DNA from: Spirochaetia bacterium
GTDB taxonomy: Bacteria; Spirochaetota; Spirochaetia; SZUA-6; Bin103
NCBI GenBank assembly: GCA_965203055.1
Contig: OZ241863.1
Span: 4,128,001 to 4,192,000 of the forward strand
Reading direction: 5' to 3'
DNA length: 64,000 bases
A model generated the notes under the pieces. That model had not been told where the DNA came from. It ran no database searches and saw only the letters and a program-made list of their open reading frames with translations. The translations under genes and the position numbers were made by a program. Shown in pieces: positions 12,736 to 50,878 of the stretch (positions are counted from its first letter, which is position 1; each line of letters opens with the position of its first letter).

Positions 12736-12745
12736 CGGTACGCGG

Positions 12746-22901: not shown

Positions 22902-22907
22902 TATGTC

Positions 22908-24354: not shown

Positions 24355-24439
24355 GCTGCGGTGGTGGAATTGGTAGACACGCTAGCTTGAGGGGCTAGTG
24401 GGCGTTTAGCCCGTGAAGGTTCAAGTCCTTTCCGCAGCA
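24355..24439 (+). tRNA. tRNA-Leu(GAG)
   Basis: Acceptor GCTGCGG/CCGCAGC, D-loop GGAATTGGTAGAC, anticodon stem CTAGC/GCTAG with loop TTGAGGG, long variable arm and GGTTCAAGTCC T-arm. CCA is not encoded. TTGACA lies at 24315-24320 upstream. Confidence 0.97.
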
Positions 24440-29859: not shown

Positions 29860-29870
29860 GTTCCCAGTCC

Positions 29871-31713: not shown

Positions 31714-33836
31714 TATGTCGTGGTCTTGCCCCAGCGGTGCTGTATGTGCTTGACCGCCTCATCGACGGGAAGCGCGCGGGTCGCGTTGCCGGTTCGCAAG
31801 TAGAAGACCGCCGTCTTCTGGTCGTCCACGTAGATTGGATAGTCGCTTGGCTCGACGGTGATCTGACAGACATCCTCACCGTCGATCTCATGGAAGGTTA
31901 CGGTAAGGAATACCGACGCCGCTTCGCCCAGGTCGCGCGCGACAAGCTGCCGCAAGTGAAGCTCGAAACCGTCGCGGTCCTTCTTGTGGAGCGTGCCATA
32001 GTCCGCCGCGAGACCGATCACGGCGCCGCCGTCGTCAACGCCGATCAGCAGGGTACCGCCTTTGGTGTTGAGGAAGCCGGCCAGCGTCTTCATGACCACC
32101 TTTTCGAGCAGCTTGTTGGTCTTGCTCTCACGCAGATCCCAGCGGAGACTCGACTTGAACTCAACCCTGTCGCTCTCGCCCCCGTCGATCAGGCGGCGGA
32201 CCGTCTGTTCGTCGATGCCGTCCGGCTCCTCGGTGACCCAACCGGCAATGAACTCGTTCATCGCTTGCGCCAGGAGACGCCTGCGATTGGCGAGGAAGTC
32301 CCGGTAATGCTCCGGCTTCCAGAGACGTTGGTCCATCGGCACCGACTGCGCCCGCAGCGCTCCCGGCTGGTATTTCTCGATAGTCGGCAGGTATTCGGCC
32401 GGCGAGGAACGGCGGACATCGAGACTGGCTCGCTGCGTCAGAACTACGCGGTTCGCCACCTCATTGATGATCTTGCGATCGCGCACGCTGTCGAATCCGG
32501 CGCTCTTCAGCACCGCCCGACCGAATATGTAGTGGCGTTCGGGTTTGGGTCCGACCTCGCGCCCTTCGGCCTTGTCGTAGATGCGGATGCCGGTAAACCA
32601 GTCCCTGGCGTCGCGGGCGCGGGCGGCGATGCGGCTCAGGCGTCCGACCGCCGAAGCGGTACCGTGCTCGGCCAGATCGGGCGCTTCCAGGATGAGGCGC
32701 CCGCGCTCCCGCAGAATCGCTTCTTCAAGCTCATGGGTGGGATCGAGATCGCGTCCGGTCACCAGCGCGACGTCCTGTTGGAGCTTGGTCAAGGCGGCGC
32801 CCGAATAGCGCGCCCAGAGCCCCGCAAGATTGAGCCAGCGAATGAAGCGGCGCTTGATGGCGTCGGTCGGAAAGTGCCCGCCGCGGCGCGCGAGATAGAT
32901 GGTGGCCGGAATCAGCACGTAGTGCGTCTGCAGGTCGTTGAGCTCGCCGATGAATGCTTCGTGGCGCAGGACGCTCACCAGGTGCTCGAACGCGGGCTTC
33001 ATCTGGCCCCATGCCGCCTGCAGCGCTTCAGCCGGCGTCCGGGTGAACGAACCTTCGAGCAGCACCGAGCCGGTGGCCAATCCCGCCAGGCAGCGCACCA
33101 GGAAGCCGAAGTCCATGCCGAATCCGGCGGCGGCCATCCGCTTGTGGAAGGCGCGCATCTCCTCCCGCGCCTCCGGCCAGATGCTGCACACGTGGGCCAG
33201 AGCAAGATCGGCCGAGGTGAGCGAGGTCCCGGCGCTGTTGACCCGATTGAAGATCTCCACCACCTGTTCGGGGCTGACGTCGTCGCCGGAGACCTGATCG
33301 ACCGTGTAGGTATAGCCGCCGATCTGACTGAGCCTGCTCAGGCGGCCCAGATTGCCAAGAATGACCCGGCGGCGGCCGTCATCGAGCTGGTCGCCGCGTT
33401 CGAGCAGAGACTCCAGCCCCTCGCTCAGAAACTCGTGGACGCCGATCCACGCCGGATTGTGCTCCATGCGCGACTTCTGCCAGAAGCGGAACTCCTCGGT
33501 CTGGGCATTGAAGTAGAGATCGAAGAACAGCGATTCTCCTTCGTAGAATCGGGGCGCTTCGCCCTTGAACAGCACGTAGAGCGTGGTCAGGCGTTGCTGT
33601 CCGTCGAGCAGCAGCAGGGAGTGGCCGTCGCGCGCCGTCTCGCCGTCGCGTACCGCCGCCGGCTTGTAGGTGCGCCAGATCAGCAGATGGCCGGTCGGAT
33701 GCTTTCGATAGAGCGACTGGACCAGCCCGCGCACCTGATCGCGGTTCCAGACGTAGCCGCGCTGGAACTCCGGCAGCAGAATCTCACCGCGACCGATCTG
33801 ATCCAGCAGTTCGCGGATCGACTTCACTTCATGCAT
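31713..33836 (-). CDS. GmrSD-like (DUF262) protein fused to C-terminal Schlafen/AlbA_2 domain
   Basis: DUF262 motifs LPEFQRGYVW, LLDGQQRLTTL and IFNRVNSAG. Degenerate DUF1524 region (ERHYIFG...VANRVVL). Schlafen motifs ESDRVEFKSS, AGFLNTKGGTLLIGVDD and YLRTG. Confidence 0.85.
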   Translation of the reverse strand: MHEVKSIRELLDQIGRGEILLPEFQRGYVWNRDQVRGLVQSLYRKHPTGHLLIWRTYKPAAVRDGETARDGHSLLLLDGQQRLTTLYVLFKGEAPRFYEGESLFFDLYFNAQTEEFRFWQKSRMEHNPAWIGVHEFLSEGLESLLERGDQLDDGRRRVILGNLGRLSRLSQIGGYTYTVDQVSGDDVSPEQVVEIFNRVNSAGTSLTSADLALAHVCSIWPEAREEMRAFHKRMAAAGFGMDFGFLVRCLAGLATGSVLLEGSFTRTPAEALQAAWGQMKPAFEHLVSVLRHEAFIGELNDLQTHYVLIPATIYLARRGGHFPTDAIKRRFIRWLNLAGLWARYSGAALTKLQQDVALVTGRDLDPTHELEEAILRERGRLILEAPDLAEHGTASAVGRLSRIAARARDARDWFTGIRIYDKAEGREVGPKPERHYIFGRAVLKSAGFDSVRDRKIINEVANRVVLTQRASLDVRRSSPAEYLPTIEKYQPGALRAQSVPMDQRLWKPEHYRDFLANRRRLLAQAMNEFIAGWVTEEPDGIDEQTVRRLIDGGESDRVEFKSSLRWDLRESKTNKLLEKVVMKTLAGFLNTKGGTLLIGVDDGGAVIGLAADYGTLHKKDRDGFELHLRQLVARDLGEAASVFLTVTFHEIDGEDVCQITVEPSDYPIYVDDQKTAVFYLRTGNATRALPVDEAVKHIQHRWGKTTT

Positions 33837-33845
33837 GCGCGCATC

Positions 33846-36791
33846 CTACCTTGACCTTGGGGCGGCCAACAGCATGGCGTCGAGCAGGCGCTTCTCGCGG
33901 GCGCCGCGCGGGTAGAGCGCCGACAGGGCGTTGGCCAGGCGCAGGAAGTCGGGGCCGCGCTCGTGCTCGGCCTTGAGCAGCGCGCGCAACGCGTTGGCGT
34001 GGCCGTTCGCCTGCAGCAGCATGGCGGCGTGCACGCGGTCGAGCGTGGTGGCCGCCACCGCCCGCAGCTCGACGTCGCCGTCCAGGATGCCCGCCCGGCG
34101 GCGCTTGCGGCCGCCGGCCCGGGGCGCGCGGTCCCACTCCGGGAACAGCGAGCGCTGCAGGCCGGCGGCCGGGTCGGCCTCGATCCAGTCGGCGGCGGCC
34201 CCGGCGCCGGCGTCGCCCAACAGGTCCTTGGCGCGCTCGGCCACCGGCAGCAGCCGCACCGTGCCCTTGGCCTGGGCGATGACGCGGCCGGTCCAGCGCC
34301 CCAGGTCGATGCCCATCGGCTGCGCGAAGCGGCGCACCACGTCGAACGGCAGGTTGAGGCTTTGGGCGCCCGCGTCTTCCTCGTCTCCCTCGTCGTCGCC
34401 CGCGCCGCGGCCATCGCCGCTGGCGTCGGTGGTCTGCAGCGTCCAGAGGAACAGCGCCGTGAGGCGCGCGTCTTCTTCCAGCGCGCCGGTCATGCCGTTG
34501 CGGGCGCGGGCTTCGGCGGCGCCGAGGACGGTTTCGAGGGCGGCGCGGCCGACCACCTCCCACACCTTTTCCAGGTACTCCGGCAGGCTGACCGTGCGCC
34601 CGGCGGCGGTCTCGACCGCGCGGTAGCGGCTGTAGAGTTCGAGCGCCGGGCCGATGCAGGCGAACACAAGGTCGGCGCCGCGCACGCCCTCGCCCTGCAG
34701 GCGCGCCATCCACTCGGCGACGCGCACCGGCAGCGCGCTCAGCACGTCGGCCCAATCGCCGACCGGCGCGTTGGCCGGCCGCGGCCGGCAGATCAGGTGA
34801 ATGCTGGTGGCCAGCGCGGCGGAATCGCGCGCCCTGAGGCGGTGGGCCTGCTCGGTCGCCACGGGCCAAGAACCAGTAATAGTCCATCCGCCGCGTGTAA
34901 TCCCGGCCAAAAGCGCTTCCCAACCTTCAGTGGTCTTGTGAGCAAAGACAACAGATGCAACGCCGTCTTCTCGTGTCACCCGCTTCCCCTCAGAGAATGC
35001 TTGCGCCATCGCGCTTTCAAAGAACTTTCTATCCTTGATACGTCCGTCGGCGGTCTTTGTTTCGTCATGAACCGCTTCTAAATGCTTTGGCGTCAGTCTG
35101 TTACTGGCATCGAACGGATCGCGGTGAATGTGTTCTGGAATAATGCGGCGATACCAAGTGAAGAAAAAATCGGAGAGATCAGAATACGGGATAGCGTCAT
35201 AGTAGGGAGGATCCGTGAACCACACAGCGGCTGCTTCGGTGGGCAGCGGTGATTGCTGTGCGGCGGCGAGTTCGGACTGCCCAACCAAGGGAATCCTTGT
35301 CACAGACGTAATTCCACTCGCGAGATTTTCTACACAAGTCCCGAAGCCACCGCTTGCCTGTGACGTGGCGACACCTTCAGCATAGTCCCATGCAGGCTTC
35401 AGGCGACCATTTGACATTACATTTCGAGGGCACTCTGCTATAGGTTCCCAGGGACAGACTGCGTTTGCCAAATCCGCGAGTTTGCCTATCGATAGTGATA
35501 GCGGTCGATTTAGTCGCTCTGCGATACGCATACTATTCCCAAGCGTGACTAGCGCCATCTTCTGCCTAGCGGAGAAGAGGTCGGCCCAGCGGAGCATGCC
35601 GTAGCGCTGCACGCGGAATCCCAGCGTGCCGATCGGCGGCAGCGGTTCGTCCGGCACTGGGCACAGTCCCTGCTTGCCGCCGCGCTCCCACTCGCCCAGC
35701 AGCGCCGCCAGCCGCTCCTGCGCCCGCCGCACTGCCGTGTAGTCCGCTTCCTCCGCCAACCGGTAGTGCCTCCCCGGCGCATCCGCCCGCAGCGTCACCA
35801 CCGCCGTCAGACGCGCGCCGCCCGTCCGCCGGCCCTCCGCGTCGAACACTGCATCGGCGCCTCCGCGCTGCGCCGCAAGCTGCGCCCGCACCCGCTCCGG
35901 CGCCAGCACCGCGCCGCAGCACAGGCACGCCGCCCGCGCCCGGGCCACCGTACCGCCCGGCACCTCCCCGTCCGCCGCCGGCGTGAACACCTCGAACCGC
36001 ACCACCGGCGGCCCCTCCGGCCGGCGCTCCACCCGATAGCGCAGCGCCCGCTTGCGCTTCGGCTTGCGGCACAGCCAGAACGAGCGCAGCAGCGGCAGCT
36101 CCGCCCCGCACTGCGGCGCCTCGCAACGCACCGTGCGCGCCCACAGGTAGGCGATCGGCGTGGCTCCGTCGGGGTCGGCCGGGTACATGTCGGCCAACTC
36201 CCGCGCCGCCGCGGCCCGTATCTCGCCGCTGGCCCGGCGCAGTTCGGCCGCCAGCCCGGGACCGTGCCGAGGGATATCCTCCAGCATCACCTTGAGGATC
36301 AGGCAGGCCACCGGGTTCAGGTCGCTGGCGAACGCCTCGCAGCCGAGCCGCAGCGCCTCCAGCGGGATCGAACCGCCGCCGGCGAACGGATCGACCACCA
36401 ACGGCGCCTCCTCGCCATGCGCGGCCCGCACCAGCTCGCGGCCGACGCGCAGATAGGTCGGGTGGGCCGCCAGGTCCCAGTTGGCGAACGCGCCGATGAA
36501 CCACAGCAGCGCGGCGCGCAGCTCGGCGTCATCCGCCGGCGGCTGCCGCACCGCGCCCAGGATGGCGCGCGCCTGCCGCTTGAAGGCGTCAGGGCAGTGC
36601 GGGTCGAGCGGATCGGGCAGCAGCAGGGCCAGCAGCACGGCGCGCGACGAGGCGAGCGGGCGCCGCGCCCACCAGAGATGGAGCGTGGACGGATGCCCGT
36701 GGCGGATCGACTTCTCCCGCGCCGCGTGCCGGGACACCTCGGCGATCGGAAAGTCGACCTCGGCCAGCCGCCGGCACGCTCGGGGAATCAC
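33846..36791 (-). CDS. DUF1156 family adenine DNA methyltransferase
   Basis: HPSTLHLWWARRPLA, motif I DPFAGGGSIP, zinc-finger-like CxxxxC/CxxC, motif IV FTDPPYY, FAHKTTEGWE. Confidence 0.92.
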   Translation of the reverse strand: MIPRACRRLAEVDFPIAEVSRHAAREKSIRHGHPSTLHLWWARRPLASSRAVLLALLLPDPLDPHCPDAFKRQARAILGAVRQPPADDAELRAALLWFIGAFANWDLAAHPTYLRVGRELVRAAHGEEAPLVVDPFAGGGSIPLEALRLGCEAFASDLNPVACLILKVMLEDIPRHGPGLAAELRRASGEIRAAAARELADMYPADPDGATPIAYLWARTVRCEAPQCGAELPLLRSFWLCRKPKRKRALRYRVERRPEGPPVVRFEVFTPAADGEVPGGTVARARAACLCCGAVLAPERVRAQLAAQRGGADAVFDAEGRRTGGARLTAVVTLRADAPGRHYRLAEEADYTAVRRAQERLAALLGEWERGGKQGLCPVPDEPLPPIGTLGFRVQRYGMLRWADLFSARQKMALVTLGNSMRIAERLNRPLSLSIGKLADLANAVCPWEPIAECPRNVMSNGRLKPAWDYAEGVATSQASGGFGTCVENLASGITSVTRIPLVGQSELAAAQQSPLPTEAAAVWFTDPPYYDAIPYSDLSDFFFTWYRRIIPEHIHRDPFDASNRLTPKHLEAVHDETKTADGRIKDRKFFESAMAQAFSEGKRVTREDGVASVVFAHKTTEGWEALLAGITRGGWTITGSWPVATEQAHRLRARDSAALATSIHLICRPRPANAPVGDWADVLSALPVRVAEWMARLQGEGVRGADLVFACIGPALELYSRYRAVETAAGRTVSLPEYLEKVWEVVGRAALETVLGAAEARARNGMTGALEEDARLTALFLWTLQTTDASGDGRGAGDDEGDEEDAGAQSLNLPFDVVRRFAQPMGIDLGRWTGRVIAQAKGTVRLLPVAERAKDLLGDAGAGAAADWIEADPAAGLQRSLFPEWDRAPRAGGRKRRRAGILDGDVELRAVAATTLDRVHAAMLLQANGHANALRALLKAEHERGPDFLRLANALSALYPRGAREKRLLDAMLLAAPRSR

Positions 36792-36806
36792 GATAGAATA
36801 CGCCGC

Positions 36807-37892
36807 TCAACCAACGGATTGATCGCTAACCAGACGGCCGATCTCACCAACAGGAAGATCGACGGAATATAACCGGCGAACACCCGAAGTATACCTGTCC
36901 GGCTGAGTGAACTTGCGGGGTGTAGGGTATACGATCTGAACGTCATAGAGCACCGCTCGAAGTATCCCGACCGCCACGGCTTGCATCTTGCTGCCTGTAG
37001 GAGCAACCAAAATCCTATCAAACATGCTCCTATCCCTGTATATGTCAAGCAACACCTTCAACGTGTCCGTGTAATCGAGTGTGCTTGACTCAAAATACCC
37101 ATGACTACCTACAAAAGCGGATATTATCGACCTGTTCAGCCTCTGAATAGCCTCCTTACGCCATCTGTTCACTAAGGCAGGCCGTATGCCGTAAACGAGA
37201 TCAGTATAGGTAGGCTGCAACTCTTCAACCAAATTCTTGAGTTGAATAGGATCGAACGATGGAAATGCAACCAATCTGATTTCCGCACCTAGCATTGCAA
37301 CTGACGAAAGCGCGGCGTCAGTCGCGACTTCGAAAATACCAGACGACATATAGCTTAGCGAGGTAACACTACCCGTCCTAAAGCTACTGTGCAGGTCATT
37401 CTCAACCTGATCCTCAGTAGGAGAATAGGCTCTCGCTTCGGAGTAAAGTAACACCATCGGTATTGGTTGTCTATGAGTGGTACCAAGTAACGCTACAATA
37501 ATTTGAACGATGAGAAGCCGCGACATGCCGGATATATCAACAAATACCCGATCAAATCCACCTATCAAGTTCGCAACTTCACTTCCGATCCCTGATGGAT
37601 TTTCACGGTCATAGACAACATCCATAGTCCCTATATCGCACCTCTGACAAATCTCGCGAATATCATCATCAAGATTCTCAGGATAGTACGGCCGATAGGT
37701 AATAAGAATGAGTTTAAAGTCATGGAATCCATGGTGGCAAACCCGCCGCAATGCCTCAACGGACCGATCCTCAAAGCCGGCACACACAATAAGGCAGTCC
37801 CCACCATGAACTGGCGGAAAATCAATAGCCCGTGGCTCGGGCCATTGGATATTTCCTAGCTGCTCGTCTAACCTTAATAGCTCAATCACCAT
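36807..37892 (-). CDS. Uncharacterised 361-aa protein, possibly tandem CARF-like Rossmann folds
   Basis: Intact low-GC ORF with repeated beta-alpha units (LIVCAGFEDRS, VFVDISGMSR, LVAFPSFD, ILVAPTGSKMQAV). The fold assignment is inference. Confidence 0.55.
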   Translation of the reverse strand: MVIELLRLDEQLGNIQWPEPRAIDFPPVHGGDCLIVCAGFEDRSVEALRRVCHHGFHDFKLILITYRPYYPENLDDDIREICQRCDIGTMDVVYDRENPSGIGSEVANLIGGFDRVFVDISGMSRLLIVQIIVALLGTTHRQPIPMVLLYSEARAYSPTEDQVENDLHSSFRTGSVTSLSYMSSGIFEVATDAALSSVAMLGAEIRLVAFPSFDPIQLKNLVEELQPTYTDLVYGIRPALVNRWRKEAIQRLNRSIISAFVGSHGYFESSTLDYTDTLKVLLDIYRDRSMFDRILVAPTGSKMQAVAVGILRAVLYDVQIVYPTPRKFTQPDRYTSGVRRLYSVDLPVGEIGRLVSDQSVG

Positions 37893-37901
37893 ACGACCCG
37901 A

Positions 37902-40391
37902 TCATAAAGGTAAAACCTTCTGCTTTCCGTCGCTAGAACTAGAGTCGTCTTCAGACTGTGACCTAATCCTCATACTACTCTCAAACTCCGTTGGAAAACG
38001 CAACATCTTTTCAAGCTGATAACCCTCCAACTGTATCGAATCTCGTCGGCTAAAAGTAAGAAGAAAGTGGGGAATGAGATACCTTCTAAGGTAATAGCGG
38101 GGCACGGCTTTACCACGCCTACTCTTTCCACGTGGATCTTCAATAAACACTGAGTAGCGCAGTAATTCATGAAGAACTTCGCTAGCCTCGTCGGACAGTC
38201 GCAACTCGTCATATGGCTCGATTCGTGACGCTTGGTGGGGTGGAGTCGAATTTCTATTCTTCGACTTTTTGTGTAAAAGATAGGAATGAGCGACGTTCCC
38301 AAAAGCTGTGATAATATCTGCCAAATGCGGGCCTCTCCCAGGCAACGTACGTATGGACTCCACAAACTCCCCAGCAGCAGCACGTATCGACGCGTTCTGA
38401 GTGCGGACTGGTATTCGAGGGGCGCTAATCGATTTCGCAAGCGCGGTCTCGCCACCGTAGTCTTCGACCATCTTACTAACAAGGCGAATGATATAGTGAA
38501 TATCGCCGCTACACATTGCCGAGATAGTCTCACAGCCAGCAAAGTAGGGTCGTTCCCTGCCAGACTTGTTGTCCACGATAATGCGGCGAGCAATGGCGCT
38601 CTTACTCCCCGTATCATTGCCTAGAAGGTCACGCAAATTGAGAACGGGGTAATGCTCCACTTCACGGAATCTACGGCTGAATAGGTCCTCTATGAACTCC
38701 TGCCTCTTTTTGGATGCGTCTGTAAGATACCGTAGGCCGAGATTCAAAAGCTCGAATTCTCTGGACTCGACATATTTCTTACCGTCAATGTCTTGCCGAG
38801 AAAACGACACTGGACTCTCGGTGGATATTTTGAAGAATACGTCGGCACTACGATACATCAAAAGTCGATTGAGGTTTGCCTGTAATTCGCCGGTAATTTT
38901 TGGCTCCGAGTAATCGTCGATAAAGAAGTAGATCGGTCTGTCTTCCAAAAAAGAAAGGCAATGTCTGACTATCTCGCAGGCCCGTATCAAGTGGCTCGGC
39001 TCAAATAACGGACGGTCTATACGCATGGTACGGCGCATACGCACAGCGCTCTGCCTTTCTCGGCTCTTTAGTCGTCCAATCAACGCCGATAGCGTATCTC
39101 CGCCGGGATGCCTGGACGGCGTCAATTCAAAAAGACTCCATAACTCAGCAGCAAGCCGACGCTGGCAATTTGTAAACTCGTCTTGAAAATACCGCTGAGC
39201 CCAGGCCAAGATGTCCTCAAGCATTGTTGCGACCAAGGTGGCGACCAAATAGTGCATTGGAATGTCAAATCCGTCGGTTCTATCAGGGAGCCTATAGCGT
39301 GGAAACGCGAAATAGAGATCGTCACATCGATAATATATGCCGACAAATCGTATGTCGTGCGGGCGATCGTCTTGAATCGAAGTCAGATATTCGAGACTCA
39401 AAGCACGAAACACCGTCGTCTTGCCGCATCCCCTTGGTCCAGTCAAGACGAGATTTAAGCGAGCTCGGATTTCTGACAGTCCGAGTAGGCGGTCCGAATA
39501 CAGGCTCTTTAGCAACAAGTGGGAGTTTCCCATTTGCTCACAATTGGGATAATCAAAGGGCGTTACAAGCTTATGGTCTTTATTGACTCTAGTGTTCTCA
39601 CGATAGAGACTACCAATCGAACGGAGCTTACTAACGAGGGCCCGTGGATCGCCAGCTAGTCTATCCGCGGTTGGATCGGTCTCAATCAGATGCCTGCGTA
39701 GAAAATCGTCTCTTAGAACGTTGTATACGTAACGATCGCGGCCGTCACAGCTTCGATAGTCGACGCAATCAAGCAAGGCGCGAAGTGTCTCGGCAAGGAA
39801 TAGGTAGTCGCTTTGGTGTCTTGCTTTGCCGCTAAAGTAGTGGACACCGAAGTCCGTTACACGGAACATACTGCGGGCGTCTATATCGAATTCAGACTGG
39901 GCGACGAGTATGTTTCTGGCGTGAAGGTCGCCATGTGAGTATCGGCGCTGCTGGAGCTCATACAACAGACCGAGCATAGTTCCAAGGAATTGCTCGACAA
40001 AGCCAACGTCGACGGCCGACGAGTGCCTTTTCATATAGGTGCTCAAATCCATACCGTTAACGTAGTCGCATACGAATACCACACCTCGAAAATCAAAATC
40101 TATTGTCTGCTCGGTATACGAAAACACGTCGTGGTATCTGACCACGGCCTGATTCTCTAGCCCGTTGGCCTTTTTTGCTTCGGCCAAATATGCCTCTTGA
40201 TCGTTGCCGTCCTGCGGCAGGTTCTCAGCGGGAACGATTTTGAAGGCTAAGCTGCTTTCTGTTCGACGGTTGTAGGCACGAAACAGGTGGCCGTTGTTTC
40301 CGGAAGCAATGAGTTCCTGGATTACGTAATCAGGAAACCGAGGCATTGTCTTACCGAGGAAGTGGTCTGCATCTGGTAAGTGTTTCCTCAC
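37902..40391 (-). CDS. Ser/Thr protein kinase fused to P-loop (ORC/CDC6- or STAND-like) ATPase
   Basis: Kinase motifs IASGNNG, LAFK, EAK, HGDLHARN and TDFG. ATPase Walker A LTGPRGCGKTT and Walker B YFFIDDY. wHTH-like basic C-terminus. Confidence 0.85.
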   Translation of the reverse strand: MRKHLPDADHFLGKTMPRFPDYVIQELIASGNNGHLFRAYNRRTESSLAFKIVPAENLPQDGNDQEAYLAEAKKANGLENQAVVRYHDVFSYTEQTIDFDFRGVVFVCDYVNGMDLSTYMKRHSSAVDVGFVEQFLGTMLGLLYELQQRRYSHGDLHARNILVAQSEFDIDARSMFRVTDFGVHYFSGKARHQSDYLFLAETLRALLDCVDYRSCDGRDRYVYNVLRDDFLRRHLIETDPTADRLAGDPRALVSKLRSIGSLYRENTRVNKDHKLVTPFDYPNCEQMGNSHLLLKSLYSDRLLGLSEIRARLNLVLTGPRGCGKTTVFRALSLEYLTSIQDDRPHDIRFVGIYYRCDDLYFAFPRYRLPDRTDGFDIPMHYLVATLVATMLEDILAWAQRYFQDEFTNCQRRLAAELWSLFELTPSRHPGGDTLSALIGRLKSRERQSAVRMRRTMRIDRPLFEPSHLIRACEIVRHCLSFLEDRPIYFFIDDYSEPKITGELQANLNRLLMYRSADVFFKISTESPVSFSRQDIDGKKYVESREFELLNLGLRYLTDASKKRQEFIEDLFSRRFREVEHYPVLNLRDLLGNDTGSKSAIARRIIVDNKSGRERPYFAGCETISAMCSGDIHYIIRLVSKMVEDYGGETALAKSISAPRIPVRTQNASIRAAAGEFVESIRTLPGRGPHLADIITAFGNVAHSYLLHKKSKNRNSTPPHQASRIEPYDELRLSDEASEVLHELLRYSVFIEDPRGKSRRGKAVPRYYLRRYLIPHFLLTFSRRDSIQLEGYQLEKMLRFPTEFESSMRIRSQSEDDSSSSDGKQKVLPL

Positions 40392-41605
40392 GCTGAACCA
40401 TTCCGGAAGACTAGTATATTCTCGTGTTTGACTCCGGAAATATGCCTGCGCGAACGTCGGATATCAGGTATCAAATCTTGCGTTATCGATCGAAGTTGAA
40501 ACCCCGGCGCTCGTACGGAAAATATTCGAATAAGTTCGTGAGATGGTGTACGCTCCTTGGATCGGGTAGTCCGGTCACCGACGACGAAGATGCAGTGGCC
40601 TCCCTTCTTTACTTTTTGGACCAACTGTGTTGCAAGAGCTTCGATTGCGCGCTTGAAGCCGTTGAGATTCTTAAGCATGCGGTCCGTTGATATACGTCGG
40701 TTGTCGCCAAGAAACCAAAGTCTTAGGCGATTGTCGCGCTCGTAGTCGAGCGCGTTCATATAGGGCGGGCTTGTGATGACGCAATCAATGTTGTCGGGGA
40801 GAGTTACGTTCTCTACGGTCGAACGGCGGATAGTACTAACGTAATCGCCTAGTGTGGTGCTGGGGGGACGCTTGAAGGCGCGGAGTACTTTTGCACGTAA
40901 TCTTGGTAATACGTCCCGATAGGCATAGAGATCGGAACATGTGTCGCGGGGAAATCGATTTGATCTGAGATACGGTACAAGATGACTGCTCGGGTACGAT
41001 AGAAAGCCAGGTCGTTGGTGATGTAGAATACCAAGTATGGAAGACAGTAGAAAGTAGCTTCGTTGTTCACGTAGTAGTGTAGATATACGAATAGTTTCTT
41101 GCAACGTAAGAGGATGAAAGAAATTCTGAACCCATCGTGGCACATCCGCAAGATCCGGCAACGGTAGAGATTTGGCTTGTGCTAAAAGATGATTCATCTC
41201 GGAGAGTGCCGTTTTTGCATTTTGTGGGGCATGGAGCTTCCCTTTGGTGAGGGTGACGGCATATGCGCTTGCGTCGGAAGCGAACACATTCCGTCCCAGA
41301 AGGGCGGCCTCAAGGGGTACCGTGCCGGAACCACAGAACATGTCTACCACTAGCTGGCCAGGCTCAGTATATGTTTCGATAAGGTCTCTAGCTATTGTAC
41401 TTTTAAGCTTACCGATATATGGGGACAACTGGTGTAGGGTACACTCTTGGTGAGTGCAAGGGGCAGACCAATGGGCCGGAGCAGGTTGGGGGGTGCCAAG
41501 TTCATTTAGTGGTAACTTATGAATGCTATGATGGTTGGTCGTTACGTCTGGCAGGGCGGATTTGCCAGACGCTGTCTGGCAAATCTCCGGTCGCGGGCCG
41601 ATCAT
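40388..41605 (-). CDS. Amino-DNA methyltransferase (alpha order, SPPY; probably m4C)
   Basis: PYIGKL, motif I DMFCGSGT preceding motif IV ITSPPY. True start may lie downstream of 41605. Confidence 0.88.
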   Translation of the reverse strand: MIGPRPEICQTASGKSALPDVTTNHHSIHKLPLNELGTPQPAPAHWSAPCTHQECTLHQLSPYIGKLKSTIARDLIETYTEPGQLVVDMFCGSGTVPLEAALLGRNVFASDASAYAVTLTKGKLHAPQNAKTALSEMNHLLAQAKSLPLPDLADVPRWVQNFFHPLTLQETIRISTLLREQRSYFLLSSILGILHHQRPGFLSYPSSHLVPYLRSNRFPRDTCSDLYAYRDVLPRLRAKVLRAFKRPPSTTLGDYVSTIRRSTVENVTLPDNIDCVITSPPYMNALDYERDNRLRLWFLGDNRRISTDRMLKNLNGFKRAIEALATQLVQKVKKGGHCIFVVGDRTTRSKERTPSHELIRIFSVRAPGFQLRSITQDLIPDIRRSRRHISGVKHENILVFRNGSA

Positions 41606-41880
41606 TGGGATTCACCGGCCGGCTGGAGGCCATGCCGGCACATGGCGTCGCGCGCGCGGGCGATTTCCGCTGCCAGGAGTTCGTCCTCGGGTGGGGTGGT
41701 TTGGTACTCGGCGGTCAGCACGTGGTTCGGCAGGCCGTTGAGCGCATAGGAGGCGACCGCGGCACTCTTCTGAGCATAGAAGATCGAGCCTTCGGGGTGG
41801 ATCAGATTCTCCAGACACCGTCTGGAGAATTCATTCATGGGGGAGCAGGCAGATTTGCCAGACAGTGTCTGGCAAATCTG
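41559..41880. repeat. Three related long palindromes with core CCAGAC-N3-GTCTGG
   Basis: 41559-41585 GATTTGCCAGAC-GCT-GTCTGGCAAATC; 41806-41830 ATTCTCCAGAC-ACC-GTCTGGAGAAT; 41850-41880 CAGATTTGCCAGACA-G-TGTCTGGCAAATCTG. Confidence 0.9.
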
Positions 41881-42096
41881 ATCTATCCGAAAAGAGAGAT
41901 AGAATTGGCGCATCTGCTGAATGTTCTGACGTGAAAAGCCGCGCCCGAACCGTTGCGTCAGATCCACCGCGAGTCTGGCGAGGAGCGCGGCGCCGTATGC
42001 CTCCACGATGCGCTGGCCGATCATCCAATAGGCGGCGGTCATGGCCGCGTTTACCGACCGGACAGCCGCGCTGTCGTTGATCGTCTCAGCGTCCAC
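41602..42096 (-). pseudogene. Internally deleted DUF1016/YhcG gene
   Basis: N-terminal VNAAMTAAYWMIGQRIVE...FGRGFSRQNIQQMRQFY joined almost directly to the C-terminal YALNGLPNHVLTAEYQT. The central nuclease region is absent (164 aa). Confidence 0.75.
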
Positions 42097-42926
42097 GCGT
42101 TGCGTCCTTCCAGAGTCGGACCGTGAAGCGGTACTCCTCGGCGATCAGGTCGGGCTCGGTACCGTTGTGGGCCTTCATCCCGGGGATGATCTTGTTGCGC
42201 ACTCCCATGCCGCGGCCATCGACGTATCCGTAATCGCGCATGACGTTGACCAGAAGCGGATTGTGGGCAAACCGGGTGCCCAGCTTCATGTCCTCGGGGG
42301 GTACGATGTTGGGACGCCGGACGGGGGCTCAAGATTTCCAGGCGGTTGGAGTATATGACCAGCATGACGTCGGTGCCGGCGATGCTGTAGTCGCGGTGGA
42401 TGAGCGCATTCGCCACCGCTTCGCGGATCACCTCTTCCGGGTATTCCGAACCGTCGCCCCGCCGGGGGCCGTCGAGCCGCGCGGCAGGCGTCGTGTTGCG
42501 GCGTACGAAGTCCCACGCCTGATCCACCAACCCCGGCTCCAGCGGCAGTCCATCCTGGGTGCGAAGCGGGGTCATCGGTCCGCGCAGATCTTCGTCGGCG
42601 CGGACCGCCTTGCCCGGCTGCTCGCCGGGGTAGCAGATCGCCCGAATGCCAGATTGCGCCAGCCAACGCTTGGGGTTCGTTCCGAACAGGAGCATCCCGG
42701 CGATGGTCGCGATCGGCTTCTCCATTACGGTCGTGGCCATGTTCCAGTTCGACAGCACGGCCCACCATGCGCCGGGATCGTCGCCACTCGGAGCATCGTC
42801 CGCCAGTACGGATGCGGCGTACTCGTGCAGGCGGCGGAGATCGAACGTACCGATCTCCGCAAGTGGGGCCGTCGGCACCGGCTTCAACGTATAGCGAGCC
42901 AGATCCGGGTATGTTGTTCTGTTCAT
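42086..42926 (-). pseudogene. Truncated, frameshifted ATP-binding (RecG C-terminal/HATPase-like) regulator
   Basis: YPEEVIREAVANALIHRDY...RLEILSP in one frame and PNIV...HNPLLVNVMRDYGYVDGRGMGV in another. Frameshift at about 42315-42327; N-terminal domain missing. Confidence 0.75.
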
Positions 42927-45900
42927 GGTGGCGGGGACGCTCCGTAGGGGATGATACCACGTTCGCGGATTTCCATGGGCGGCTGCAGGGCGTCGATGCT
43001 CAGCCAGTAGTGCTGGACCTTCATCACCTCGCGCCACGGGAAGCGGGCGGGGTCGCGGACCGGCTCCTGCAGCGTGGGGGCGGTGGCGCAGTCGGTGACC
43101 ACGTACAGCCAGTAGCAGTCGGGCCGGTCCTCGGCGACGCGGCGCTCGTTCGGAGTGAGCAGGATGCTGCCGGCCGCGCCGGCCAGTCCCTTCACCTCGA
43201 TCAGGCGCAGCTCGCCCGATTGCAGGTCCAGGCTGGTCACGTCGTAGCCCAGGTTCTTCTCGTGCACGTCGTAGACCTGCCGGCCCTCCGCGGCCTCATG
43301 CCGCATGACGGTCCGCATCGCCGTCAGCTCGGTCTCGGGATCGGGGCGCAGCCGGCGCACCGCCGCGGCGTCCCGTTCCGGGTGGGGCAGGATCAGCGCG
43401 CTGGCCAGCCGTTCGACCGCCTGCAGGGTGACCGCCCGCTGCCGCCCCGACTCCTCGCGGCGGCGCTCGCGGCGCGCCAGCAGCTCGGCGTGGCGCGCCT
43501 CGGCCTGGGCCAGGCGCCCCTCGGCGCCGGCGGCCTCGTGTTCCGGGTCATCGGCGGCGCGGCCGATCTCGTGATCGACGCGCTGCAACACCTCGGTCAG
43601 CGCCAGCTCGACGTGGCCGGCGACGCGGTCGACCTCGGCCACGCGCTCGGCGCGCACCTCGTCCAGGAACGGCGCCAGCGCGCGCTCGTGGAGCCAGCCG
43701 GTCGCCTCCGGGAGGGACGCCGCGGCCGGCAGCTCGGCGGGAGCGGGCGCCGGGCTCAGGTTGCCGAGCAGGTCCGGGCCGCGCAGGCGCGGCTCGCCGC
43801 CGGCGGTCAGCTCCACCGCGAACAGCCGTTCGTGGATCACGCGGCCCAGGCCGTCCACGATGCGCGCGCGGTAGCAGTCGAGGCGCGCCGGCGCGGCGTG
43901 CGCCAGCGAGTGGAAGCAGGCGCCGCGGCTGCAGGCATCCTGCCCGCGCGCCAGGCTATGCCGGCGCAGCGCCTCGAACAGCGGATGGCCGGGGGTGACC
44001 CATTCCAGCGCCTGCCGCTCCGCGGTGTCGCGGTCGGTGGTGAGCCGCGGGTAGCGCGCGGCCAGCGCCGGCAGCTTCCAGTCCGGGTCGCGCTCGTGGC
44101 GGCGCAACGCCGCCGGCGTGCGCCCGGGATCGAAGGTATGCGCCATGCCGCGCACCGGCCGCAGCGGCAGGGCCGCGCCGCCGGCGCACTCGGCGATGAA
44201 GCGGGCGATCGTCTCCGGCACCACCCGCCGCTCCTGCGCGCGGGCGCGGCGCTCGATCAGCAGGTCCAGGTTGAGCTTGCGGGCGGCCAGTCCTTCCAGG
44301 GCGGTCCGGCAGATCGACCGGAAGCGCCCCTCGTCCACGTCGCGCAGCAGCCGCTCCTCCAGGTCGGCGTCGCCCAGCTTGCCGGCGTAGTAGTCGCGCA
44401 GCACGCGCTCCACCTGCGCGGACGGCAGCACCTCGCCCACCACGTTGAACACCGCGTCGTCGTCGAGGGCGTCGCGGATCTCCCGGAGCCTGTCCAGCAG
44501 CCGCCGCAGCACGCGGCCCTCGATGGTGTTGGCCGCCACGAAGTTGAAGATCAGGCAGTCGCGCCGCTGCCCGTAGCGGTGGATGCGGCCCATGCGCTGC
44601 TCCAGCCGGTTCGGGTTCCACGGGATGTCGTAGTTGAACAGGATGTGGCAGCACTGCAGGTTGATGCCTTCGCCGGCCGCCTCGGTGGCGACCAGCACCT
44701 GGATCTCGCCGTCGCGGAACCGCTGCTCGGCGTGCAGCCGCGTCCCCGGTTCGTCGCGCGCGCCCGGCTTCATGCCGCCGTGGATGCAGCCCGCGGCGAA
44801 GCCCCACGCCGTGAGCCGCTCCAGCAGGTAATCGAGCGTGTCCCGGAACTCGGTGAAGATCAGCAGCCGCTGGCCGGGCCGGTCGAAGAACCCCTCATCC
44901 CGCATGATCGACCGCAACCGGCGCAGCTTCGCCTCGCTGCCCGCGGCTTCGACCGCCTGCGCCTGCCGCGCCAGGCCGCGCAGCTCGGCCGCTTCCTCCC
45001 GCACCTGCGCGGCGTTGCCGGCCAGCGTGACCGCCTCCAGGATGCGCTCCAGCCGTTCGCGCTCGGCGTCTTCGAGCTCGTCGAGCTCATCCTGGTCGGG
45101 AAGCTGCGGCGGCGCCGCGCGCAGCAGCTCGCGGGCGCGGCTCAGTCCCTCCTCCAGGCGCCGCGCCCGGTTTTCGAGCGACCGCCGCAGGGCATGGGTG
45201 CTCGACGCCAGGCGCCGCTGGTACAGCGCCATAAGGAATCCCACGGCGCGCGCCCGCGGGTCGTCGTCCTGCGCCGCGGCGCGGGCGCTCTGCCGTTTCA
45301 CGAAGCGCGTGACCGTGCGGTAGAGCTCGTGCTCGGCGCCGTCGATGGCGAAGCCGGCGGTACGCGCGATGCGCTTGGTGAATACCGGCCGGGCAGTCCA
45401 GGCGCCGTTCTCCTGCCGCTCCGGGAAGTAGACCATCGCCTCCTTGGTGCGGCGCAGGTAGAACGGGGCGCGCCGCTGCTCCATCGCCCGGCGGATCGAG
45501 GTCACGTCGGCGTAGGCGTCCCGGTCGAGGAGCTGCAGGAACAGCGTGAAGTTGCCGGCGTCGCCCTTGTGCGGGGTGGCGGTCAGCAGCAGCACGTGAT
45601 CGGCGCGGTCGCGCAGCAGCTCGCCCAGCCGGTAGCGCTGGCTCTTGTGGGTCTCGTCCCGCGCCGACATGCGGTGCGCCTCGTCGACGATCACCAGGTC
45701 CCAGCGCACCTGCGCCAGTCCGGGCAGGATGTCGGCGCGCTTGGCCAGGTCGAGCGAGGTGATGACCTGCCGCTGCTCCAGCCACTGGTTGACGCCGAAC
45801 TGGCCGCGCAGGTCGGCGCCCTTCAGCACGACGAACCGCTCCTCGAACTTCTCGTTGAGCTCGCGCTGCCACTGGAACGCCAGGTTCGCGGGGCCGACCA

Positions 45901-46405
45901 CCAGGATGCGTTCGATCAGGCCGCGCAGCTTGAGCTCGCGGATCAGCAGGCCGGCCATGATCGTCTTGCCGGCGCCGGCGTCGTCGGCCAGCAGGAAGCG
46001 CACGCGCGGCAGCTTGAGGAGGTGTTCGTAGACCGCTTCGAGCTGATGCGGCAGGGGGTCCACCCGTGAGATCGACAGCCCGAAGTAGGGCTCGAACTCG
46101 TAGGCGATGCCGAGCGCGTAGGCCTGCAGGGCGAGGCGCAGCAGCCGGCCGTCGCCGTCATAGGAGCGGGCGGCGTCGGCGATGGTCAGCGCGGCGAGGT
46201 CGGCCGCGGTCAGCGTGACCCGCCGGAACCGCTCCGACTGCCGGCCGACCAAGCCCGCGATCCAGGTGTCCGGCCCGTTCGAACGCACCGTCTCCACCAG
46301 CATCGGCTCGCTGAACAGCGGGCCGCTCAGAATCTGTCCTTCCCGGATGGCGGAGATGGCGGCCGCGGAGCTTGCGGTCGATGGCACGGAGGGAGTATGC
46401 CCCAT
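42923..46405 (-). CDS. SNF2-family helicase with C-terminal DUF3883 nuclease-like domain
   Basis: PLPHQ, LLADDAGAGKT, IVDEAH, LTATPH, ATEAAGEGINLQ, QRMGRIHRYGQ. C-terminal GYDVTS...IEVKG. Start uncertain. Confidence 0.92.
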   Translation of the reverse strand: MGHTPSVPSTASSAAAISAIREGQILSGPLFSEPMLVETVRSNGPDTWIAGLVGRQSERFRRVTLTAADLAALTIADAARSYDGDGRLLRLALQAYALGIAYEFEPYFGLSISRVDPLPHQLEAVYEHLLKLPRVRFLLADDAGAGKTIMAGLLIRELKLRGLIERILVVGPANLAFQWQRELNEKFEERFVVLKGADLRGQFGVNQWLEQRQVITSLDLAKRADILPGLAQVRWDLVIVDEAHRMSARDETHKSQRYRLGELLRDRADHVLLLTATPHKGDAGNFTLFLQLLDRDAYADVTSIRRAMEQRRAPFYLRRTKEAMVYFPERQENGAWTARPVFTKRIARTAGFAIDGAEHELYRTVTRFVKRQSARAAAQDDDPRARAVGFLMALYQRRLASSTHALRRSLENRARRLEEGLSRARELLRAAPPQLPDQDELDELEDAERERLERILEAVTLAGNAAQVREEAAELRGLARQAQAVEAAGSEAKLRRLRSIMRDEGFFDRPGQRLLIFTEFRDTLDYLLERLTAWGFAAGCIHGGMKPGARDEPGTRLHAEQRFRDGEIQVLVATEAAGEGINLQCCHILFNYDIPWNPNRLEQRMGRIHRYGQRRDCLIFNFVAANTIEGRVLRRLLDRLREIRDALDDDAVFNVVGEVLPSAQVERVLRDYYAGKLGDADLEERLLRDVDEGRFRSICRTALEGLAARKLNLDLLIERRARAQERRVVPETIARFIAECAGGAALPLRPVRGMAHTFDPGRTPAALRRHERDPDWKLPALAARYPRLTTDRDTAERQALEWVTPGHPLFEALRRHSLARGQDACSRGACFHSLAHAAPARLDCYRARIVDGLGRVIHERLFAVELTAGGEPRLRGPDLLGNLSPAPAPAELPAAASLPEATGWLHERALAPFLDEVRAERVAEVDRVAGHVELALTEVLQRVDHEIGRAADDPEHEAAGAEGRLAQAEARHAELLARRERRREESGRQRAVTLQAVERLASALILPHPERDAAAVRRLRPDPETELTAMRTVMRHEAAEGRQVYDVHEKNLGYDVTSLDLQSGELRLIEVKGLAGAAGSILLTPNERRVAEDRPDCYWLYVVTDCATAPTLQEPVRDPARFPWREVMKVQHYWLSIDALQPPMEIRERGIIPYGASPPP

Positions 46406-46557
46406 CCATCGCAAAGATGCCGTCCGGCGGCACCACCGCAACCGCCACGGCAACACTGGCAGAGGGCGGCTACGATCGGTACCAGAACCTGTATTGGGCG
46501 CGCCAAACGCTGTACGGCAAGCAGCTTCGGGTTCAGGTAGTGGAAGGGTGAGTCAGG

Positions 46558-47721
46558 TCACTCACGGTCGAACAGGCTTCCGGTCACCACCTGCAGCAGC
46601 CGTTCCCGTATCGTTCGGCTGGAGGCCGCCAGATCGACGGTGGCGAAGCGCACTTCGTGGCCCTGGATGACCGCGGCTTCGTAGACGCTCCCCCGGACTG
46701 ACGGGTGCAGCAACATTCCGGTCGCGCCGAGCGACCGCGGATCGTCCGGTCGCTCCTGCGACCGGACGTAAGCGTATATCTGGTAGAGATGTCCACTGTG
46801 GAACGTCTCTTTCCCGTAATGGCCCGACGCCACGATCGACGTGAACTTGGTGTCGATGATGATTCGGCGGTCGCGGGATTCGAGCACTATGTCGGCCGTC
46901 ATCGACGGGAGGAGCGCACTCAGTCCGGATGTGCCGCCTTCCACCTGCCAATGCATCTGCCTCCCTGTCCGGGTGGTCCACTCCGATGGCGGCAACACCA
47001 CGTCGTAGAAGCCGCCCACCGCCGCTTCGAACAGCCTCCGCGCCCAGTGCTCATCGCGGTCGGGCGAACGCAGATACGCTCCGCCGGCGGTCTCGGTTGG
47101 CAGCGCGAGGCTGAAGGCGAGTTCGGCCGCGGCCATCATGGTCCGGTCCTCCGGGTCCATGCGTCCCCGCAACTCGGCGGCGGCGCCGCTCCGTCCGCGC
47201 GGGCTGGCCAGAGCGGGGTCGGAGCTCACGCCGGCGGCCTCCAGGCGGGCGCCCGCGGCGCGGCACCGGGAAGCCAGCTCCGCCGTGCCGACCACCGGGA
47301 CCAACTGCTGCGCGGCGGCCCGTACGTACCGATTGCGCGGCGTGTCGACCGTCAGTTCCTCGTACCGGCAGGCGACTCGGCCCCGCCGCAGCAGGTGACG
47401 CCGTTCGGTGCGCAGCAGGTCGATGCGGCCGCGCACGCGCCTCAGGTCCGCGCTGGTTTCCTGGAATGCGAAGCTCAGGTTGCGCCGCAGCCGCCGCTCG
47501 ATGGCGCGGGTAAGGAGCTGCGCCACCAGGTCGGGGAGCTCATCCGGGTTGTCCTCGACGGCGACCCGCCGAGCCGGCGGCAGCTCCCGGTAGAGACGGG
47601 AGGCGTACAGCATCAGCAGCCAGAGGTTGCGGATCGGAATCCGGCCGACGTTGCCGCGGCCAGCGGCGACTGCCGGCTCACTCGCGGCGGGCAGCGCCGC
47701 CTCCGTACCGTCGGCCGCCAT
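46558..47721 (-). CDS. mcrC: McrC 5-methylcytosine restriction component
   Basis: IPIRNLWLLMLYA, LFEAAVGGFY, ADIVL...IIDTKF (PD-D/ExK), HLYQIYAY. TGATG coupling to mcrB. Confidence 0.9.
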   Translation of the reverse strand: MAADGTEAALPAASEPAVAAGRGNVGRIPIRNLWLLMLYASRLYRELPPARRVAVEDNPDELPDLVAQLLTRAIERRLRRNLSFAFQETSADLRRVRGRIDLLRTERRHLLRRGRVACRYEELTVDTPRNRYVRAAAQQLVPVVGTAELASRCRAAGARLEAAGVSSDPALASPRGRSGAAAELRGRMDPEDRTMMAAAELAFSLALPTETAGGAYLRSPDRDEHWARRLFEAAVGGFYDVVLPPSEWTTRTGRQMHWQVEGGTSGLSALLPSMTADIVLESRDRRIIIDTKFTSIVASGHYGKETFHSGHLYQIYAYVRSQERPDDPRSLGATGMLLHPSVRGSVYEAAVIQGHEVRFATVDLAASSRTIRERLLQVVTGSLFDRE

Positions 47722-49865: not shown

Positions 49866-49876
49866 GTCAATTCCTG

Positions 49877-50872: not shown

Positions 50873-50878
50873 TCGGGT

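Follow-up and report, generated by a model that had tools for sequence, protein, structure and literature searches.

To our knowledge, CARF sensors are known almost solely as receivers of the cyclic oligoadenylates (cOA) of type III CRISPR, and the outputs known for them are nucleases, proteases, deaminases and membrane proteins. Single proteins in which a Zn ribbon, a Ser/Thr/Tyr kinase, an AAA+ domain with Arg in the P-loop, a CARF domain and a winged helix-turn-helix (wHTH) are fused have been noted computationally (Makarova et al. 2014, PMC4012209, accessible text). BREX type 2/Pgl, as outlined in the accessible part of PMC12839542, comprises the PglX methylase, the PglW kinase with an inactive STAND/ORC-Cdc6 domain, the ORC/Cdc6-type ATPase PglY/BrxC, and PglZ. 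MADS, as outlined in the accessible part of its preprint (10.1101/2023.03.30.534895), has 8 genes, among them a type-I-like methylase with an S subunit, and MAD6, MAD7 and MAD8 are mandatory in its MacSyFinder rule. Here, a stretch of 64,000 nucleotides from a Spirochaetia bacterium (GenBank assembly GCA_965203055.1, contig OZ241863.1, positions 4,128,001 to 4,192,000 of the forward strand; hereafter the window) was analysed around a three-gene block at window positions 36807-41605, which encodes a methyltransferase, a kinase-ATPase and a protein with two CARF-like domains (hereafter the trio). The kinase-ATPase-CARF combination is already known as one fused protein; the split three-gene form with a methyltransferase is an uncharacterised, widespread candidate system.

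The favoured reading, to which a probability of roughly 45% is given, is that the block is a self-contained, horizontally mobile candidate anti-phage or anti-plasmid module, combining a putative CARF-gated kinase with a putative self-marking methyltransferase and recently taken up as cargo of an Hma operon. The three genes are intact, coupled, co-inherited across phyla and of foreign origin, and they occupy a cargo position in a defence operon. As far as alignments can tell, their kinase, Walker A/B, S-adenosylmethionine (SAM)-binding and SPPY motifs and their CARF-type loops are under strict conservation. The genes are, in the order of transcription:

40388-41605, minus strand: methyltransferase, 405 aa, ATG start
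37902-40391, minus strand: kinase-ATPase, 829 aa, GTG start
36807-37892, minus strand: tandem CARF protein, 361 aa, ATG start

An earlier reading of these letters (the original prediction) had described three intact, tightly coupled open reading frames (ORFs) on a low-GC block inside a defence operon, and the sequence reads as it stated. All three ORFs are intact, translationally coupled and on the minus strand; the methyltransferase and kinase-ATPase genes share the letters GTGA at the stop of the one and the start of the other, and between the kinase-ATPase stop and the CARF start lies a gap of 9 bp. Its counts of guanine plus cytosine (G+C) were exact (26/60 at 37081-37140, 47/60 at 28021-28080), and the block as a whole is 49.3% G+C (2366/4799), against 68.6% (27073-36791) and 72.9% (42923-46456) in the surrounding operon, now identified as Hma. 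At third codon positions, the G+C of the trio (GC3) is 0.48-0.53, and that of the Hma genes 0.83-0.94. A GC3 so far below that of the Hma genes points to a recent, unameliorated acquisition of the cassette, and a G+C content sharply unlike that of the host operon argues that the two arrived separately.

The kinase-ATPase is laid out as a Ser/Thr-type kinase (residues ~19-268), a disordered linker, an ORC/Cdc6-like AAA+ domain (~305-600), a helical region and a C-terminal alpha/beta module. Pfam assigns Pkinase to residues 22-184 (1.2e-12) and PF24389, the ORC-CDC6-like family, at 2.2e-53. Across an alignment of 28 sequences, H153(-G-)D155, N160 and D180-F-G of the kinase domain are invariant, as are the Walker A motif GPRGCGKT (318-325) and the Walker B residues D492-D493 of the ATPase, while K51 and E71 are kept in at least 90% of sequences. 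The C-terminal module carries an invariant basic loop, RGKSRRG (754-760), and appears to be winged-helix-like. An AlphaFold2 model (pLDDT, for predicted local distance difference test, 84; predicted template modelling score, pTM, 0.62) contains a full Hanks-type kinase fold by Foldseek, which returned kinases alone for the whole model, headed by PknI, PknB and WNK with TMt values up to 0.67. The family comprises 697 clusters at E<=1e-3, from 8000 candidates scored. The best 120 of these 697 are all full-length Pkinase plus PF24389 proteins, and the 119 besides the window protein are 54-77% identical to it.

In the third protein, a CARF-like Rossmann domain occurs twice in tandem (33-152 and 204-346), and an effector domain is absent. 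It matches the PADLOC model CARF6--CARF_CARF_CARF at 6.5e-14; in Pfam there is a weak Csa3_N match (0.0091) and nothing convincing. Its AlphaFold2 model (pLDDT 87.9, pTM 0.91) shows two Rossmann-like halves, and the top Foldseek TM-score is to Can1 (6sce_A, TMq 0.52), with Csm6, Cad1 and Cam1 also matching, at E-values similar to those of tandem universal-stress-protein folds and transporter C-terminal domains. Because generic tandem Rossmann proteins score alike, the CARF identity rests jointly on hidden Markov model and fold evidence. Four loops are invariant in 42 sequences, GFE (39-41), DxSxMSR (119-125), FP (210-211) and PxGSK (298-302); in each half they come after strands one and four, an arrangement that would fit a conserved ligand pocket. 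The family numbers 913 clusters (1095 representatives at 50% identity), and its members, where named, ESM Atlas clusters included, are called "hypothetical protein". An exhaustive profile search, over its best 150 relatives, found one fused to a HisKA plus HATPase_c histidine kinase (P0375, 670 aa) and one fused to a calcineurin-like phosphoesterase (P0323, 724 aa); at word-based search sensitivity, no fused form was seen among proteins of 633-2000 aa. These two fusions argue that the tandem-CARF type feeds phospho-signalling.

The original prediction thus fared well on domains: the SPPY methyltransferase, the 829-aa Hanks-type kinase with full motifs joined to a P-loop ATPase, and the CARF-like third protein (the last through the PADLOC CARF6 models together with AlphaFold2 and Foldseek) were all recovered. 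The absence of a recognisable nuclease also held, with none found in the three proteins by Pfam, PADLOC and NCBIfam profile searches.

The CARF fold raises the question of whether the trio serves type III CRISPR-Cas, or CBASS, as an ancillary effector, acting in trans on a cyclic oligoadenylate made elsewhere in the genome. Can1 binds cyclic tetra-adenylate (cA4) between its two CARF domains. The trio protein resembles Can1 in having two CARF-like Rossmann domains per chain, with the conserved pocket loops described above, and resembles the other cOA binders Csm6, Cad1 and Cam1, and the PADLOC models that it matches bear the CRISPR-ancillary name CARF6. Unlike Can1, with which it shares ~9% sequence identity, it has no nuclease domains and no CRISPR linkage. 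Among the window ORFs that were scanned and 133 flanking ORFs at 18 other trio loci, there was no cas gene, no cas10 or other cOA synthase and no cyclase gene, and a type III assignment by linkage was rejected. The accessible part of the 2014 description gives no CRISPR link for the fused family either (PMC4012209). Such an in-trans ancillary role is considered very improbable.

With the fused STK-AAA-CARF protein (PADLOC PDLC01925, "CARF6--CARF_STK_AAA", 1187 positions), the trio shares three domains in the same order. The kinase-ATPase covers model positions 495-724 (1.8e-29) and the CARF protein positions 891-1178 (2.8e-10), so that the match is distant and partial. The trio has the N-terminal kinase and the Arg in the P-loop (GPRGCGKT) that mark this family. 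In contrast to it, the CARF domains are not in the same chain but in a separate ORF, there is no Zn ribbon (no N-terminal Cys pairs) and, in the model, no wHTH after the CARF domains, and a methyltransferase gene is added at 19/20 loci, where none is mentioned in the accessible part of the 2014 description (PMC4012209). The novelty claimed by the original prediction therefore stands in part. No entry of PADLOC-DB 2.0.0 or NCBIfam 20.0 names the trio, and no paper describing it was found among the open-access papers searched; the claim was overstated in that the fused kinase-AAA+-CARF protein had been known since 2014, as the accessible text of PMC4012209 has it, and that CARF6--CARF_STK_AAA was matched.

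In logic, BREX type 2/Pgl and MADS are closest to the trio, and their defining components are absent. Going by the accessible account of that system, BREX type 2/Pgl likewise joins an amino-methyltransferase to a Hanks-type kinase and an ATPase of the ORC/Cdc6 clade and shows no obvious nuclease; the trio differs in its small methylase (405 aa), which belongs to a different family, and in its CARF protein. PADLOC match lists were complete for the kinase-ATPase and the CARF protein and covered the best 25 of 63 for the methyltransferase. There was no PADLOC match to PglW, PglX, BrxC/PglY or PglZ at E<=0.1 and no PglZ-like ORF in the operon, and the trio was not classed as BREX/Pgl. With MADS the methylase, kinase and ATPase logic is again held in common, and the kinase domain matches PADLOC mad6 at 1.5e-17. 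An assignment to MADS was likewise rejected: the mad6 match does not extend beyond the kinase domain (for NCBIfam MAD6 the score is 18.3 bits, where the cut-off is 460), mad8 was matched on the P-loop alone (8.6e-4) and mad7 was not matched. The trio lacks MAD7, the specificity subunit and the MAD3/4 nuclease module.

Less complex systems were also compared. The single-gene kinase defences PD-T4-6 and staphylococcal Stk2 share the Hanks-type kinase, possibly as an abortive-infection effector, and PADLOC matches of PD-T4-6 to the trio kinase domain reach 3.6e-13; unlike the trio, these kinases have no AAA+, CARF or methylase partners. A type II restriction-modification (R-M) system was rejected, as the trio holds no nuclease domain and the conserved partners of the methyltransferase are the kinase-ATPase and the CARF protein. 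No HEC or PDC model was matched by the trio (for the methyltransferase, among the best 25 of 63 matches) and none of HEC-01 to HEC-09 resembles it, whereas its neighbours do match HEC-01A, HEC-05 and PDC-S02.

The recurrence of the trio in other genomes provides evidence that it is a unit. Twenty loci, numbered with an L below, were fetched by a genome scan anchored on the kinase-ATPase. They span at least 8 phyla and include Acidobacteriota, Gamma- and Alphaproteobacteria, Desulfobacteraceae, Verrucomicrobia, Bacteroidetes, Gaiellales, Planctomycetes, Nitrospinota and Chloroflexota-type genomes. The CARF gene lies downstream of the kinase-ATPase in 20/20 and the methyltransferase upstream in 19/20, with constant order and strand; since gene order is kept in 19 of the 20 independently fetched loci, the trio is far beyond chance. 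The pairwise identities of the proteins are also correlated (methyltransferase with kinase-ATPase r = 0.87, kinase-ATPase with CARF protein 0.98, methyltransferase with CARF protein 0.88; 45 non-independent pairs from 10 loci). The co-occurrence across genomes on which the original prediction depended is thereby seen. Complete open trios are present at 14/20 loci, and 2/20 are cut at contig ends. No fourth conserved gene was found beside the trio in the flanks of the fetched loci, and a search of complete Escherichia coli genomes, with the DNA of the enterobacterial copy as query, gave no match.

The kinase-ATPase is damaged at three of the 20 loci, by an in-frame stop in L002, by a ~1.1-kb insertion in L008 and by fragmentation in L019, which is decay typical of costly cargo. 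In L008 the gene is interrupted at 11260-12535, the insertion carries two small ORFs, and transposase genes (rve, Mutator) lie upstream. A distant copy, L021, on a plasmid of Bradyrhizobium quebecense, keeps the gene order and encodes kinase and ATPase as separate genes; it consists of a methyltransferase of 44% identity, a 246-aa kinase, a 652-aa ORC/Cdc6-like ATPase and a tandem CARF protein of 31% identity. Three architectures thus exist, with four genes (L021), with three genes (the trio) and as the single fused protein of the literature.

In the window, the trio sits within the Hma operon, between HmaA and HmaB, and 15 bp lie between the CARF stop and the GTG start of HmaB. The surrounding features, in the order of transcription, are:

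46558-49973, minus strand: McrC-like (McrBC domain) and AAA_5 McrB-like genes, directly upstream of HmaA, extending the defence island
42923-46456, minus strand: HmaA, SNF2-type helicase with NOV_C (PADLOC HmaA 1.7e-167; Pfam SNF2-rel_dom, Helicase_C, NOV_C), first core gene
42926 to 42089, minus strand: frameshifted HATPase_c_4-family gene; its ATG at 42926 overlaps the HmaA stop (ATGA), the shift is at ~42320-42330 and the out-of-frame tail 42089-42328 matches at 1.5e-9
41602-42096, minus strand: internally deleted remnant of a DUF1016 (YhcG-type) gene; Pfam DUF1016_N 5.8e-21, no YhcG_C nuclease (PD-(D/E)xK) domain, PADLOC PDC-S02 3.3e-26
33846-36791, minus strand: HmaB, DUF1156 adenine methylase, GTG start (PADLOC HmaB 3.9e-102; Pfam DUF1156 3.6e-22)
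29871-33836, minus strand: second cargo site, with a GmrSD_N plus Schlafen/AlbA_2 gene (HEC-05-like; GmrSD 31713-33836), an AAA_21 ATPase (HEC-01A-like) and a DUF4276 gene
27073-29859, minus strand: HmaC, DUF499 AAA+ ATPase (PADLOC HmaC 5.2e-90; Pfam DUF499), last core gene

The HmaA helicase, the HmaB DUF1156 methylase and the HmaC DUF499 ATPase thus form one minus-strand operon, of which the trio is cargo and not core. Hma has been renamed a DUF499-centred BREX-related system in a 2026 paper (PMC12839542, accessible part). Genes embedded in Hma have been used as a discovery principle, with 7/9 tested candidates protecting according to the accessible part of a preprint (10.1101/2024.01.29.577857), and the trio holds the HmaA/HmaB cargo slot in the manner of such embedded defence genes. 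The operon has two cargo sites, HmaB/HmaC and HmaA/HmaB. The former has a G+C of ~0.64, a value lying between those of host and trio. The latter holds, besides the trio, the frameshifted HATPase_c_4-family gene, whose frameshift reflects either the decay of a cargo gene or an error in sequencing, and the DUF1016 remnant, whose stop overlaps the methyltransferase start (ATGA), whose last ~55 aa look, by eye, like the family's C-terminal tail, and which stands outside the conserved trio.

G+C breaks at ~41555, which coincides with the first of three near-perfect palindromes:

41555-41586, no strand: near-perfect ~31-nt palindrome at the high-G+C/low-G+C junction, inside the first codons of the methyltransferase ORF
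41801-41832, no strand: second such palindrome
41848-41879, no strand: third such palindrome

Their core is CCAGACnnnGTCTGG, and they are of the AGATTTGCCAGACnnnGTCTGGCAAATCT type (repeat families D1, I1/I6). Three occur in the 64-kb window, against 0 expected from 100 shuffles, and nowhere else in the window; none was found in the related loci, 20 in number. They may represent operators, the scar of a recombination event or a small mobile element. Over 36000-43500, promoter-like sites (5, against 3.9 +/- 2.0 expected) and terminator-like sites (10, against 5.7 +/- 3.3) gave no usable signal.

The defence island lies 12-35 kb from dnaA, with housekeeping genes on its flanks. The chromosomal origin region occupies 1355-15457 (parB, parA, gyrA, gyrB, yidC, recF, dnaN, dnaA), and ribonucleotide reductase genes follow the McrBC-type pair at 49877-53779. 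Uma2-family and HNH-domain ORFs (21577-24439) adjoin a tRNA-Leu(gag) gene (24355-24439) ~2.6 kb past the end of the Hma operon, and no integrase was seen there.

Hma itself is not a constant companion. By tblastn with HmaA, HmaB and HmaC, it is absent from 18/20 trio loci; L001 has HmaB and HmaC, and the other HmaB matches are the methyltransferase gene of the trio itself. Proximity to defence genes in general, which the original prediction also bore on, is seen at 7 of 18 long loci, where clear defence genes lie within 5 kb of the trio (E<=1e-20). The neighbouring genes at individual loci are:

L001: DUF1156 methylase and DUF499 gene near the trio
L002: type I S subunit near the trio
L003: PDC-S34 near the trio
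L010: complete type I R-M system immediately upstream of the trio, same strand
L011: type III methylase upstream and UvrD-type helicase downstream, overlapping ends in both
L014: full-length DUF1016 gene at 5066-6289, upstream of the trio
L015: PglW as a separate gene immediately downstream of the trio

In addition, an Mrr-type nuclease (Mrr_cat) is encoded near the module in L021, and L002, L003, L004 and L008 each carry integrase or transposase genes.

Since the trio lies inside or beside modification systems in the window (Hma) and in L001, L010, L011 and L015, it may be asked whether it is autonomous at all, or rather a sensory and regulatory accessory that, in the manner of other embedded regulators, uses phosphorylation to tune neighbouring modification-based systems (Hma, BREX, type I/III R-M). 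Effector-less CARF proteins can be regulators, with which the weak Csa3-like match agrees. Nevertheless, the partner system varies from locus to locus, 11/18 long loci have no such neighbour, the trio brings its own methyltransferase, and the G+C of the cassette, unlike that of the host operon, speaks for a separate arrival. Such an accessory role is considered quite unlikely.

Several neighbours were noted next to the trio genes in smaller sets of loci. A thyX gene (flavin-dependent thymidylate synthase) lies downstream of the CARF gene in two alphaproteobacterial contexts, L003 (14596-15528, ~1 kb) and L021 (8905-9828, 83 bp). In the related loci L004 and L005, a histidine-phosphatase-family ORF (His_Phos_1) comes right after the CARF gene (13622-14116 and 13589-14095, respectively), and a class-I SAM methyltransferase of 576-578 aa is encoded upstream of the trio (6782-8518 and 6789-8519). 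The two genes of L004 and L005 may be extra phospho-signalling partners.

The methyltransferase has the least certain role of the three proteins. It matches Pfam N6_N4_Mtase (1.1e-12) and UPF0020 (2e-10) and PADLOC MTase_II (3.3e-21), and has both a motif I (DxFxGxGT, residues 88-95) and a motif IV of the (S/D/N)PP(Y/F) form (TSPPY, 278-282; SPPY, 279-282), as expected of DNA N4-cytosine/N6-adenine amino-methyltransferases. Motif I precedes motif IV, and the order is therefore permuted relative to beta-class DNA N4C/N6A enzymes. D88-F90-G92-G94 and T278-S-P-P-Y282 are invariant in an alignment of 15 sequences. The nearest solved chains are the DNA N4-cytosine methyltransferases 8s9m/8s9n, with the match confined to the two motifs, and the ESM Atlas clusters of the protein carry the automatic name DNA methyltransferases. 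Among relatives the N-terminal ~40 aa are not conserved; past residue 41, no internal indel of at least 3 aa and no variable stretch of the size of a target-recognition domain (TRD) was found in the 15 sequences, which come from across phyla. With a mean pairwise identity of 56%, it is the most conserved member of the trio (52% and 46% for the other two). Together, this conservation and the lack of a variable recognition stretch suggest that the enzyme probably has a single fixed substrate, which might be DNA at a fixed motif (self-marking of the BREX/Pgl/MADS kind), RNA, protein or a nucleotide.

The same features give rise to the main rival of a self-marking role, namely that the methyltransferase is an effector or a signal-maker, either marking DNA upon activation by the kinase for nearby methyl-dependent nucleases, or producing the CARF ligand or an off-signal from a nucleotide or SAM. 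One fixed substrate is what such an enzyme would be expected to have, and the protein also scores with the RNA/protein amino-methyltransferase families UPF0020, Trm14 and HemK. Methyl-dependent nucleases are close by in the window (McrBC and GmrSD, listed above) and, as Mrr_cat, in L021, and no ligand synthase was seen near the copies in the ORFs scanned. In Pgl there is a precedent for toxicity of kinase plus methylase, and the kinase there has been proposed to switch on methylation during infection. These points are offset by the SPPY motif, by nearest solved relatives and Atlas names that denote DNA N4-cytosine/N6-adenine methylases, by the lack of any small-molecule methyltransferase family among those that scored against the protein, and by L018, which does without the canonical methyltransferase. 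Type IV nucleases, moreover, adjoin the module in just 2/20 contexts (18 long loci, the window and L021). An effector or signal-making methyltransferase is thus considered unlikely.

Under the favoured reading of a self-contained defence module, the double-CARF protein would form one pseudo-dimeric pocket and bind a small, nucleotide-derived ligand that arises upon infection. Both the fold of this protein and the invariance of its pocket loops speak for ligand binding and hence for a role as sensor, and it is a more natural sensor than the ATPase, to which the original prediction had given this part and for which it is doubtful. The CARF protein would dock on the kinase-ATPase; such contact is suggested because the two are one polypeptide in distant relatives and match successive parts of one PADLOC model. 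The ORC/Cdc6-like AAA+ module would serve as a switch or scaffold that depends on ATP and may act on nucleic acid by way of the basic C-terminal module. The kinase would be the effector and phosphorylate host or phage proteins, arresting infection, as suggested by its strictly kept catalytic residues and the lack of a nuclease. The methyltransferase would modify a fixed target, most likely one conserved motif of host DNA, and so stop the module from responding to self, on the pattern of BREX/Pgl and MADS.

A bolder version of the sensing step was considered, in which the trio is a cyclase-independent CARF pathway. Here the CARF protein would sense a nucleotide made or altered during infection, possibly a methylated or SAM-derived product of the module's own methyltransferase, and gate the AAA+ kinase, which would phosphorylate host or phage proteins and in this way stop the infection. 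This version is regarded as decidedly doubtful; if true, it would bring a new messenger class and the first route of immune signalling from CARF to a kinase.

A number of observations weigh against a self-contained defence module. Every mechanistic step of the model is inferred, the anatomy alone being observed. Co-occurrence was counted solely on loci chosen through the kinase-ATPase, and one of them, L018, has kinase-ATPase and CARF without the canonical methyltransferase, with a different type II methylase encoded divergently. At 11 of the 18 long loci no recognised defence gene lies within 5 kb at E<=1e-20, and the neighbourhoods of L007, L013, L016, L017 and L020 are mostly housekeeping. 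No Cas10, CD-NTase or other ligand-making enzyme was seen in the scanned ORFs of the window or among the 133 flanking ORFs. A search of 50,697 phage records yielded 0 copies, and 72,556 plasmids yielded one, the distant L021. Mean column identity is high for arms-race genes (CARF protein 55%, kinase-ATPase 58%, methyltransferase 61%). Finally, with the strongest conservation in the trio and without a variable segment resembling a TRD, the methyltransferase looks unlike typical self-marking enzymes that diversify their specificity, so that the marking of self DNA put forward in the original prediction is weakened.

Some of these points would also suit a non-immune signalling module, in which a kinase that senses stress or a metabolite is paired with a methyltransferase of RNA, protein or DNA for housekeeping regulation and is simply carried on mobile DNA. 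The housekeeping neighbourhoods, the high conservation across phyla, the absence of a nuclease or membrane effector and the CARF relative fused to a histidine kinase are all in line with it. Against this, the distribution is sporadic and the G+C foreign, adjacency to defence and mobile-element genes is repeated, the kinase-ATPase is pseudogenised at 3/20 loci, and the set of CARF, ORC/Cdc6-like AAA+, kinase and amino-methylase is typical of conflict systems. A housekeeping role is considered unlikely, and a defence module remains the favoured reading.

The family to which the trio belongs is widespread, with ~700 to 1100 sequence clusters in many phyla, and combines a double CARF protein with a kinase-ATPase and a dedicated methyltransferase, without a cyclase or a nuclease. 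If it is defensive, CARF sensing and kinase signalling would operate outside CRISPR, and the methylase-kinase-ATPase logic of BREX type 2/Pgl and MADS, which is poorly understood, would gain a compact relative of three genes in the trio. The trio would then also be a further worked example of how cargo embedded in Hma predicts new defence genes, and a tractable system for the roles of kinases in bacterial immunity.

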